Part shown: positions 50,000 through 52,675 of the stretch, one piece after another | Numbering within the stretch: position 1 is the first letter of the stretch | Layout: each line of letters starts with the position of its first letter | From: Candidatus Hermodarchaeota archaeon | GTDB lineage: Archaea > Asgardarchaeota > Hermodarchaeia > Hermodarchaeales > Hermodarchaeaceae | Assembly: GCA_016839805.1 (NCBI GenBank) | Contig: JAEOTO010000003.1 | Span: forward strand, 1-64,000 | Direction of reading: 5' to 3' | DNA: 64,000 nucleotides | The notes under the pieces: model-generated | Told to the model about the DNA's origin: nothing | Database searches by the model: none | What the model saw: only the letters and a program-made list of their open reading frames with translations | Translations under genes and position numbers: made by a program

Positions 50000-52675
50000 T
50001 TAAGACTTACGTTTCCAGGCTGGAGGATAGGTTCCAGCAGGGATTACAACTCGCATTGTTTTTGCCACTATTCCCGAAGAAGCTTTGAGTATTTGTTGCG
50101 TTGATTGTTGCGCTATTGCCAAAGCAACGAGCTCAGTTTTAATGGTTAGAATAGCAACGGTATCTCCCGGTTTTATGTCATCATGGAGTTGCAGCACACC
50201 TGCCACAGCTAGGTTGGCACCATGGCATAATGCATCGACTGCTGTGTCTCGAATTACAATTTGAGGCAGGTGAGCCACGCCATCCTCCAAAGGGTGTAGA
50301 ATCAGACGGAGAGGTTGCTGGTCTTTCTCCTCTTGCCAGAAATGATAGGCATCGACTACATCATAGAGAGTTGCTAAGGTGGAATCTTCTTTGAAGGGTC
50401 CGGTTCGAGTGCGGCGAAGTTCAGCCATATGAGCTCCACCCCCAAGAGCTTCTCCAATATCATAGCAATTGCTTACAAACGCAGCACCATTCAATGCAAA
50501 ATTATGATGCTGGTTTACGGTTATATCATAGACATAATCGAAATCTGCAGTTGTTTTTTCAACCGCTTTGATTTCGTCCAGAAAGTATTTTGCATTTACT
50601 TGATTTTTCAATGCAATTAGGTCGAAATCGTTCTTAGGCACTACTTTTTGTAATGATTTGACTATTTTTGATAAAATCAGTCTGGTTGGTCTTTTACCTG
50701 TCAATAGTTGATTAAATGCTCCTCCTCTGTAAATTGAATTTTTTGATAACCCATATTGCTGAATTAAATTTTTGATATGGGTTACGCATGATATGGGCAT
50801 TAAGTCTTGTGAGCCATATGATTTGTATCGTGAAAAACGTGTTTCAAATTGCTTAATCTTTTTTTGTTTCTTAGGGTGTTTACATTTCATTAATTGGGAA
50901 AACCGAATTTTGTCAAAAGGCGATTTAATTATCACATGGTATTTTGGAGTTTTTCCACTCTCATCAAAGGTTGAACCTAGTCTTTCATATATCTTTGAAC
51001 GTATTCCAAGGCGTTTTAGTAGTAGAGCTAGTTGAACTGCAATATGATAAAAAGCTGTGTCGTATGCGATCTCTGTGTAAGGTGAATTCGTTTTAATAGT
51101 AACTGTTCCATCGCCATCAAAGTATCCTGACATGAAGTTTGAAATCATATCTTTTGAGAGAGAAGAAAGGTTTTCTAAATGCATAGTTTTCTTTGGACTC
51201 ATAATTCCAAGTTTTTTCGCAATGCCTGCAAGAACGGGATTATTTACCGTCACAAGAAATGTTCCAGAGATTTCTGATTGTCGAATGCTAGTTGCTGGAA
51301 AGAACCGATTTACTGTTTTAATGAAATATTGAATGAGTTTACTTTCTTGGTTGGTAAAAATTACCCTCGTAGGTCGTATGCATTTCTTTTCTTGGACCAC
51401 ACTACCATCAGACGCCACCAAACCTAGTAAGAATAGAAGTTCGGAATTAATTTTCTTCTCTGAAATTGAATAGTAAGCACCTCTCTCGCCTTTGAACGCT
51501 TCAACCATCTCGCAAACTGAAGTCCAATCTAGTCTAGTTTCCTCACAAACTTGGCGAAGATACTTAATTCGAATACCCATTCCTGTTTGGAGAAAGACTC
51601 GCCTGTCTATTCCAAGAATCCTACAGGCTTTTGTTACACTGCCAAACGCTTCTGAAAGGAATTTCTTGCATTGTTTTTTCAGTTCGTTTCCAAGGCAAAG
51701 GAAGTCCTGATCTAAAAGCTCTAGAAGATATGGGATTTTCTCATTTTTTTGAGTTAATTCTCGGGGGCTGAAAAGAAAGTTTCCTGGAACGATGTCTTCT
51801 GCATCTTTCAATAAAGGACCTTTGATATCATCAACTAGTATTTCATGGTCAGGAGTAACTTGGAGTCTAAGACCCGAATCAAGTTTGAGCCTGACCATTT
51901 CAGAAGGCGCTGGTAATTTTTGGACTGCGGTGATGGAGGAAGATTCAAGTTTGTGGTCGTGAAGATTTAAAGAAAGTGTCTCCAAAAATCCCAAATCTAA
52001 TTTATTGGAATTAGAAGAATCCAACCTTGAATCAACGACCTTCGAGATTTGGTGGAGACCTCCATTTTGTAAAAAGAGAAAAGAAGAGGGAGAAACACAT
52101 AACTTTCTGATGTAGGTTCCAGCTTGACAGCCGACGCGAAATAAGACGTTTTTCTCTTCAATTTCTAAGATATGTATGTAGTAGATTTGACGCGTACGAA
52201 CACGCCGTTTTACTGAGGAGCGAACAGGAGGTCGTTGATAAATCGTTCCTACAAACTCTGCTGCAACCTCACGAATTTTATCTGGAGATTCCTCTTGATG
52301 GAGCCGCATAACACAGACGTATTCTTTACCCGATGTAAGGAGTGCATTAGCAATTTTGGTGGAATTTCCAAGCATAACGGGAAGCACACCAGTGACCTGA
52401 GGGTCCAATGTTCCTGCGTGACCTGCTCGATCTAGACGTAGAATACGTTTTACCCAGGACACTACTTCATGGCTAGTCGGCCCAGGAGGCTTTTCTGGGC
52501 TTGTAAAAGGTCAATAACCTCTTAAAGGCAAGCTATCCAGATTGATGATCCCATCCCGAAATAACTCAGGAATGGTTCGCTCCTGTGGAACACGACCATA
52601 AGCCGGATTCGTAGTATCCTCGGCACGCGTTACCAGTTTCCGTTTCTTATCTGCAGGCAGCCGCGGCTTTGTCAC
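50000..52675 (-). CDS. cbf5: Cbf5 (TruB-family H/ACA pseudouridine synthase): join(52675..52535, 52492..50000), containing an intein
   Basis: GAGGAGG SD then GTG at 52675. Exon 1 ends GIINLD; exon 2 begins [15 protein letters not shown]; [24 protein letters not shown] and PUA domain follow. Confidence 0.95.
50468..52099 (-). mobile_element. Intein (544 aa) with LAGLIDADG homing endonuclease in cbf5
   Basis: N-junction RKL/CVSP; block [10 protein letters not shown]; LLGLVASDG and [10 protein letters not shown]; block F VYDITV..HNF; C-junction VSN/CYD; visibly AT-richer than the exteins. Confidence 0.93.
52493..52534 (-). other. 42-nt bulge-helix-bulge mRNA intron in cbf5
   Basis: CTGG-AT^A-GCTTG...CAAGC-CCAG-AA^A. 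Cutting after the second nt of each 3-nt bulge restores GAT-AAG (D-K). Contains an in-frame TGA. Confidence 0.9.

Follow-up and report, generated by a model that had tools for sequence, protein, structure and literature searches.

The inteins PI-PkoII (2cw7), TliVMA and PhoVMA (7qss, 7qst), PI-PfuI (1dq3), and yeast PI-SceI have a HINT domain interrupted by a two-motif LAGLIDADG endonuclease and a DNA-recognition region. They share Cys1, the block B TxxH motif, the block F Asp, the terminal Asn, and a +1 nucleophile. Their hosts are proteins of an essential type (a polymerase, an ATPase, or a ribonucleotide reductase), which they interrupt at a conserved motif of the active site. Here, we describe an intein with the same layout in a different host, the pseudouridine synthase Cbf5. 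It is encoded in a stretch of 64,000 nt from a Candidatus Hermodarchaeota archaeon, which we refer to as the window (GenBank assembly GCA_016839805.1, contig JAEOTO010000003.1, positions 1 to 64,000, forward strand).

The same gene is also known as the host of an RNA intron. A bulge-helix-bulge (BHB) intron in crenarchaeal cbf5 pre-mRNA was reportedly described by Watanabe in 2002. The crenarchaeal intron treated in a later paper, in which the word intein does not occur, is short, is cut by the tRNA-splicing endonuclease after the second bulge base, and is fixed within clades (Yokobori 2009, PMC2738675). The cbf5 gene of the window has a predicted intron with these same properties in addition to the intein, making it an example of a protein-coding gene in archaea whose expression would depend on RNA splicing of the tRNA type as well as on protein splicing.

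The intein and its host gene

Translation of positions 50468-52099 on the minus strand yielded 544 residues without a stop codon, beginning with CVSPSS straight after the host sequence GTYIRKL and ending with AAFVSN straight before CYDIG. The gene is arranged as follows, with residue conservation taken from an alignment of 36 Cbf5 inteins (A3).

52535..52675, minus strand: cbf5 exon 1, 47 codons with a GTG start, last residues GIINLD; matches the NF003280 profile from position 2
52493..52534, minus strand: predicted 42-nt BHB-type mRNA intron with an in-frame TGA, based on sequence and RNA fold; insert at the same site in 14/14 genus genomes
52100..52492, minus strand: cbf5 exon 2, N-extein part, 131 codons; contains GTLDP with the catalytic Asp, last residues GTYIRKL
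50468..52099, minus strand: intein of 544 aa with N-splicing, DNA-recognition/linker, LAGLIDADG endonuclease core, and C-splicing regions
51845..51856, minus strand: intein block B, T82-P-D-H85; T82 and H85 invariant in the 36 inteins
51404..51430, minus strand: LAGLIDADG motif 1, LLGLVASDG, with acidic D231; Pfam LAGLIDADG_3; D231 and G232 in at least 90% of the 36
51107..51133, minus strand: LAGLIDADG motif 2, MSGYFDGDG, with acidic D330; D328 and G331 invariant, D330 in at least 90% of the 36
50468..50536, minus strand: intein blocks F and G, YVYDITV..HHNF..AAFVSN; V523, Y524, D525, H532, N533, F534, and N544 invariant, S543 in at least 90%; NCBIfam intein_Cterm
50000..50467, minus strand: cbf5 C-extein, 155 codons plus stop; Cys+1, the remaining catalytic domain, and the PUA domain; Pfam TruB_C_2 and PUA

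Positions 50468-52099 thus encode a class-1 intein with a two-motif LAGLIDADG homing endonuclease inside cbf5, which was confirmed at the levels of profile, residue, and fold. The Pfam family Intein_splicing (PF14890) matched with 66.8 bits against a cut-off of 35.8 (2.5e-18) and LAGLIDADG_3 (PF14528) with 67.6 bits (1.1e-18), while NCBIfam intein_Nterm (1.1e-9) and intein_Cterm (TIGR01443) both exceeded their cut-offs. The class-1 features comprise the Cys1 that follows the N-extein, the block B TPDH, the block F VYD...HNF, the terminal Ser543-Asn544, and Cys+1. Among the 36 Cbf5 inteins, C1, T82, H85, D525, H532-N533-F534, and N544 were invariant, and D231, D330, and S543 were kept in at least 90%. 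Both LAGLIDADG motifs are intact, each with an acidic residue before the Gly (D231 in LLGLVASDG; D328 and D330 in SGYFDGDG). The intein has a GC content of 36.4%, compared with 47.0% for the exteins and 45.3% for the window as a whole. A preliminary description of this DNA, made from the letters alone, had named the insertion between GTYIRKL and CYDIG with these same elements and called its DNA AT-richer than the host, and the analysis agreed with it on both counts; the search with intein profiles that it proposed gave the matches listed above.

Since a sequence-only search of the PDB with the intein gave weak matches (6rpp, 1e-5; 2cw7, 4e-4), a fold search was needed. An AlphaFold2 model built on the 36-intein alignment reached a predicted local distance difference test (pLDDT) score of 91.3 and a predicted template modelling (pTM) score of 0.91. 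Its top Foldseek matches in the PDB were all inteins with the HINT fold, led by PI-PkoII 2cw7 (5e-22), TliVMA 7qss (7e-20), and PI-PfuI 1dq3 (2e-18), and also including PI-SceI. Matches to the described inteins ranged from 5e-22 to 7e-13 with target TM values of up to 0.77, at a sequence identity of only 10-17%. The nuclease core of the model matched I-DmoI and I-Tsp061I with a target TM of 0.67-0.73, as expected for the alpha-beta-beta-alpha-beta-beta-alpha fold of a monomeric, two-motif LAGLIDADG nuclease. The Cbf5 intein is therefore genuine, well preserved, and complete, and it is ordinary in kind.

The host gene is equally well defined. An open reading frame (ORF) of 820 aa at 50000-52462 on the minus strand spans exon 2 including the intein and has its stop at 50000; the whole ORF scored 368.5 bits against the Cbf5 equivalog NF003280 (cut-off 242) and 355 bits against TIGR00425. 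The two host halves adjoin on NF003280, covering profile positions 2-170 and 168-322. They also meet on the Pyrococcus Cbf5 chains, where the N-extein aligned to index 53-183 (E 7.6e-54) and the C-extein to index 185-334 (E 2.6e-48), which places the insertion two residues past the Arg of GTYIR. The Tyr and Arg of this motif are residues that we take to belong to the active site, from structural work on the TruB family. Intein-free orthologues read GTYIRKL-V/C-YDIG, that is, the host sequence is contiguous once the intein is removed. The NF003280 profile search turned up a single copy of cbf5 in the source Hermodarchaeum genome, which is 87% complete. A pseudogene or a second copy was also considered and rejected, since the frame is open over 820 codons and no other cbf5 was found in the genome.

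Probable mobility of the intein within Hermodarchaeum

The nearest copy of the intein was found in Ca. Hermodarchaeum yapensis (JAEOSK010000011.1, genome G006) and is 74% identical to that of the source genome (G000), while the identity to Cbf5 inteins outside the genus is 25-38%. A third Hermodarchaeum-like intein lineage, L134, came from metagenome loci. In a tree of the extein DNA, the intein-bearing alleles formed three lineages. Starred support joined two of these to intein-free sisters in the sample, namely the G006 group to G002, G005, and L144, and L134 to G011. G000 together with L140 had no close intein-free sister in the sample.

The copies in G000 and G006 were compared with their surroundings by third-position identity and by synonymous divergence (dS, from NG86 estimates), as follows.

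Intein: third-position identity 0.62, dS 0.88
Exteins: third-position identity 0.37, dS saturated
Four flanking genes: third-position identity 0.43-0.50, dS 1.5-4.4

Since the dS of the intein is below that of the exteins and the flanking genes, the two intein copies share a more recent ancestor than the host genomes. The ratio of nonsynonymous to synonymous divergence (dN/dS) between the two was 0.18 for the whole intein and 0.14 for the nuclease core, and both intein activities have therefore been under selection.

A further mark was found at the codon that follows the intein. The +1 codon is TGY (Cys) in every intein-bearing Hermodarchaeum allele. Where the intein is absent, a GTN codon (Val) was seen instead, namely in 11 of 12 genomes of the genus, in the four genomes of the sister genus, and in the Hermodarchaeum-like metagenome loci L141-L144 and L147. 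Since a nucleophile at +1 is required by the intein, the Cys codon must have come along with each arrival. This distinguishes the genus from most other archaea, in which Cys is already there, whereas invasion of a native Val allele needed codon replacement. The footprint of co-conversion left by replacing the +1 codon is very short, the reverse of a tract spanning the 394 nt to the intron. One allele departs from the pattern: L025 (G009), on a long branch, is the lone intein-free Hermodarchaeum allele with Cys at +1 (GTYIRKI-C-FDIG), a Cys that an intein may have left behind when it was precisely lost.

Judging by these comparisons, the intein looks laterally mobile within Hermodarchaeum and is apparently still mobile. 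The patchy distribution, the divergence of the intein after the host split, and the replacement of the +1 codon are all consistent with homing by a putatively active endonuclease. Taken as a whole, the account of a class-1 homing intein that moves laterally and independently of the intron is in our view highly probable.

Vertical inheritance with repeated loss would explain the same pattern differently, in that the intein was present in the Hermodarchaeum ancestor and was later lost precisely, with Cys+1 reverting to Val. The three Hermodarchaeum-type inteins do form one clade, with a support of 100 in the Shimodaira-Hasegawa-like approximate likelihood ratio test (SH-aLRT), the strong divergence of the L134 intein (48% aa identity) fits a long residence, and the Cys+1 of the intein-free G009 is a possible scar of precise loss. 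However, Val+1 is common to 11 genus genomes and the sister genus and so is likely ancestral, and every loss would also need a two-base change from TGY to GTN. Moreover, an intein dS of 0.88 lies well under that measured for the exteins and for the four genes nearby, where dS ran from 1.5 to saturation, and the sisters of G006 lack the intein at a dS of only 0.2-0.3. We therefore consider vertical inheritance with loss improbable.

It is somewhat more conceivable, though still on the unlikely side, that splicing is intact but the endonuclease is dead, which would make the intein an immobile passenger in the source species today. Decay is common among inteins, the Cbf5 intein of the Njordarchaeum type (L044/L128) has lost both acidic residues, and activity cannot be read from sequence. 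In the source species, by contrast, D231, D330, and both motifs are intact, the nuclease-core dN/dS is 0.14, and the patchy spread and young intein divergence suggest recent mobility.

Several points weigh against the favored account of a mobile class-1 intein. The dS comparison is based on one intein pair and on short genes, and the GC content at third codon positions (GC3), 0.30 in the intein versus 0.35, could bias the NG86 estimates somewhat. The L134 intein is only 48% identical at the amino acid level, so that losses from a long-standing polymorphism could explain part of the pattern; Cys+1 occurs in G009 although its cbf5 lacks the intein; and all the genomes are incomplete metagenome-assembled genomes (MAGs; 72-91%). 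Finally, the penultimate His, the usual assisting residue, is absent, and Ser543 stands in its place, which sets the Cbf5 intein apart from PI-PkoII, TliVMA, PI-PfuI, and PI-SceI. However, a Ser-Asn end was found in 76 of 79 metagenome Cbf5 inteins (Cys first in 79/79, Cys+1 in 78/79), and the missing His is therefore a family rule and not a defect of the copy in the window. The review PMC4031507 counts the penultimate His among the assisting residues, and its references point to inteins that reportedly splice without it, namely the Mja PEP and RpolA' inteins and the Ssp DnaE intein (refs 74 and 87; Chen, Benner and Perler 2000 and the Ssp DnaE structure of 2005), so that membership in class 1 is compatible with the Ser. 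These three inteins likewise have a non-His residue at block G position 6 and retain the Asn. They differ from the present case in that the Ser is conserved across the whole Cbf5 intein family (76/79), whose members would presumably splice.

From the presence, architecture, catalytic residues, and fold of the intein, its single-copy host, its distribution, and the divergence statistics, which were all observed, we infer protein splicing, endonuclease activity, and the direction and number of transfers. The precursor would most likely excise the intein after translation by the class-1 route, with an N-S acyl shift at Cys1, attack by Cys+1, cyclization of Asn544, and an S-N shift. The exteins would then rejoin ...GTYIRKL to CYDIG..., giving a normal Cbf5 with Cys at the junction. 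The single-copy host gene and the purifying selection speak indirectly for such autocatalytic splicing. The endonuclease would cut the intein-free cbf5 around ...ATHMGNAARYTN/..., and repair would copy in the intein and the adjacent codon, so that each arrival in the genus would have replaced the native Val+1 codon by a Cys codon. The element would thus behave as a selfish homing element, moving laterally among Hermodarchaeum species and, more widely, archaeal phyla.

For the population biology of inteins, the genus is a compact data set provided by nature: it has three intein-bearing lineages (two of them beside sampled intein-free sisters), its inteins are clearly more similar at synonymous sites than their hosts, and the change from Val to Cys at +1 was forced.

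The intron and its relation to the intein

The second interruption of the gene, the 42-nt insert, is predicted to be a BHB-type intron that appears older than the intein and fixed in the genus. Its predicted fold (-22.4 kcal/mol, z -3.1) has a 4-bp helix of CUGG with CCAG and an inner helix of GCUUG with CAAGC, along with an AUA bulge and an AAA stretch. A cut after the second bulge base, which is the rule for crenarchaeal cbf5 introns (PMC2738675), restores the frame ...NLD/KPPGPTSH. No outer helix closing the 3' bulge was predicted in the fold of the 42-nt intron, so the BHB motif is of a relaxed form, unlike that of the classical crenarchaeal intron. The position also differs, since the Hermodarchaeum intron lies between the NLD and KPPG codons, whereas the classical site, within the codon for the catalytic Asp, is 29 codons further downstream. 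The insert was present at the ...NLD/KPPG... site in 14/14 Hermodarchaeum genomes with cbf5 and absent from 4/4 sister-genus genomes, and its helices were maintained across species by wobble and partner changes with one mismatch, in G003. Two tRNA-intron endonuclease genes were found in the source genome, and the intron would be removed by the tRNA-splicing endonuclease and a ligase, separately from the intein.

The intron also affects annotation, as gene callers truncate such cbf5 genes at it. They start the intein-bearing cbf5 (window 50000-52462, homologues P0003-P0017) just past the intron, so that the called products lack the N-terminal DKCLD/PF08068 region. The public names of these products are uninformative ('PUA domain-containing protein', 'intein/homing endonuclease', 'homing endonuclease').

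Because this is the only cbf5 of the 87%-complete genome, making Cbf5 requires removal of both the 42-nt intron and the intein. The preliminary description had gone further and regarded Cbf5 output as doubly gated, possibly in a condition-dependent manner, with homing co-converting the nearby intron so that both would spread together. The first half of this idea survives to the extent that both interruptions are real and both must go; a sequence feature specific to conditional splicing was not found. A redox-sensitive disulfide between Cys1 and Cys+1 is conceivable, since such bonds have been reported for some other inteins, but for the Cbf5 intein this is speculation.

Co-conversion was addressed through distance, distribution, and sequence. 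The insertion point 52099/52100 is 394 nt from the intron (52493-52534), which lies upstream; the estimate of about 390 nt was thus accurate, and the co-conversion tracts of some homing systems do reach 394 nt. However, 14/14 Hermodarchaeum genomes with cbf5 have the intron and 2/14 (G000, G006) have the intein. In four other Asgard genomes, the intein shares one uninterrupted frame with the N-terminal region, so that an insert containing a stop is absent there. The G006 intron is 1 nt off that of its intein-free sister G002 and many positions off that of G000. The two distributions across Asgard genomes are therefore independent and the intron follows the host lineage, which contradicts the proposed carriage of the intron by homing.

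The exteins gave the same picture. Substitutions private to G006 are spread evenly (19 in the 393 nt upstream and 15 in the 465 nt downstream of the intein), their sole cluster being the +1 codon and possibly the next 30 nt, so that no foreign tract extends beyond that codon and at most about 30 nt. In addition, G000 and G006 have different bases at most of the synonymous sites in the extein sequence adjoining the intein. The possibility of a long co-conversion tract was rejected on the basis of the G006 intron, these flanking synonymous differences, and the even substitutions. A regulatory double gate combined with joint spread of the two interruptions is accordingly a very remote prospect, and their occurrence in one gene is best read as a coincidence, in which a roaming intein met an intron already fixed in the clade, and neither as linkage nor as a regulatory device.

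Double interruption was also seen outside the Asgard archaea. In two Bathyarchaeia MAGs and one Desulfurococcales MAG (L052:2155-2215, L054:620-675, and L056:2135-2215), a classical crenarchaeal cbf5 intron occurs together with a Cbf5 intein. These introns lie in the catalytic Asp codon and have textbook 4-3-4-3-4 BHB folds. Since members of the same intein family stand beside a different, classical intron, the double interruption arose at least twice with different introns and at different intron sites, once in Hermodarchaeum and once in Bathyarchaeia/Desulfurococcales, which also counts against joint spread.

In other Asgard families, cbf5 is broken right after GTLEP, near profile position 67 (L034, L035, and L036 in G024, G029, and G039, as well as G037 and G034). 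This break is at the classical crenarchaeal intron site, unlike the Hermodarchaeum site.

The short footprint allows one further proposal, which we regard as doubtful. The native Val+1 might render the intein-free Hermodarchaeum cbf5 partly refractory, such that only homing that converts the adjacent codon to Cys yields a viable, splicing-competent gene. If this were true, it would keep the intein in a long-lived presence/absence polymorphism, and the genomes would naturally record co-conversion tracts of unusual shortness, from a few bases to about 30 at most. A further, more daring and speculative addition is that the Cys1/Cys+1 pair might make Cbf5 maturation redox-sensitive.

Cbf5 inteins in other archaea

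With Cbf5, an RNA-modification enzyme joins the list of intein hosts, and the allele is widespread across archaeal phyla. A protein search detected about 85 clusters of Cbf5-plus-intein proteins in metagenomes; both junctions were readable in 79 of these clusters, and the insertion site was identical in all 79. A scan of species-representative genomes gave at least 31 Cbf5 inteins within its 80 best loci. Genome and metagenome contigs were covered by alignment-based scans, single-protein scans with the intein having given no matches there. The intein was found in 6/400 genomes of the phylum sample, spread over four families. No paper on a Cbf5 or TruB/pseudouridine synthase intein was found within the literature searched. 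The host and site are thus frequent in databases and, as far as searched, undescribed in print, so that the initial view of a pseudouridine synthase as an uncommon intein host applies to this literature but not to the sequence databases.

The host records are labelled Woesearchaeota, Nanoarchaeota (DPANN), Bathyarchaeia, Thermoproteota, Desulfurococcales, Heimdallarchaeota, Promethearchaeota, and Njordarchaeum, with a few more labelled Methanosarcinales or Thermoplasmatales. The Cbf5 inteins of DPANN/Woesearchaeota, Bathyarchaeia/Thermoproteota, Heimdallarchaeum endolithica CP084167, and Njordarchaeum share the insertion point, GTY[IV]RKL/C...SN/C.D.G, as well as the architecture and the Ser-Asn end of the intein in the window, which with its 544 aa is about 40 residues longer than the DPANN-type inteins. 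At two Hadarchaeota loci (L055 and L115), the intein is 34-38% identical, and a motif check did not confirm the host junction.

In the intein tree, the three Hermodarchaeum-type copies formed their own clade beside the Bathyarchaeia type, while the Heimdall and Promethearchaeota copies nested within the DPANN clade, and the Asgard Cbf5 inteins therefore have several origins. The nested inteins are L041, L042, and L043 (G050 = Heimdallarchaeum endolithica CP084167, G072, and G110), which lie inside the Woesearchaeota/Nanoarchaeota clade. Their placement points to an exchange of inteins between Asgard archaea and DPANN, as a suggestion.

Records labelled 'uncultured Methanosarcinales' or 'Thermoplasmatales' (L094 vs L101, also L067, L075, L089, L092, and L093; binchicken co-assemblies) contain inteins nearly identical to those of Woesearchaeota, with branch lengths of about 0.05. 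It may be that these MAGs carry unreliable taxonomic labels.

The Njordarchaeum-type intein (L044:1501-2994 in G295, and L128 in Ca. Njordarchaeum guaymaensis) has 498 aa and the same junction motifs. It is very diverged, and the acidic residues are lost from both LAGLIDADG motifs, the first of which has a deletion while the second reads FDCCG, so that it looks like an intein with a decayed endonuclease that retains its splicing residues.

The nearest relatives outside Cbf5, at 25-30% identity (proteins P0081, P0085, and P0089-P0100, and loci L059, L061, L068, L074, and others), include inteins in V/A-ATPase subunit B, in a TPP-dependent enzyme, and in a protein of the pyruvate-ferredoxin oxidoreductase type. 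Others occur in bacterial MAGs of Armatimonadota, Anaerolineae, and Acetothermia. The source genome itself contains at least five more intein-containing open frames of 555-1693 aa, located on C22 at about 57.5-62.5 kb, 229.5-231 kb, and 245 kb, at C13:46168-46344, and at C30:300-1190.

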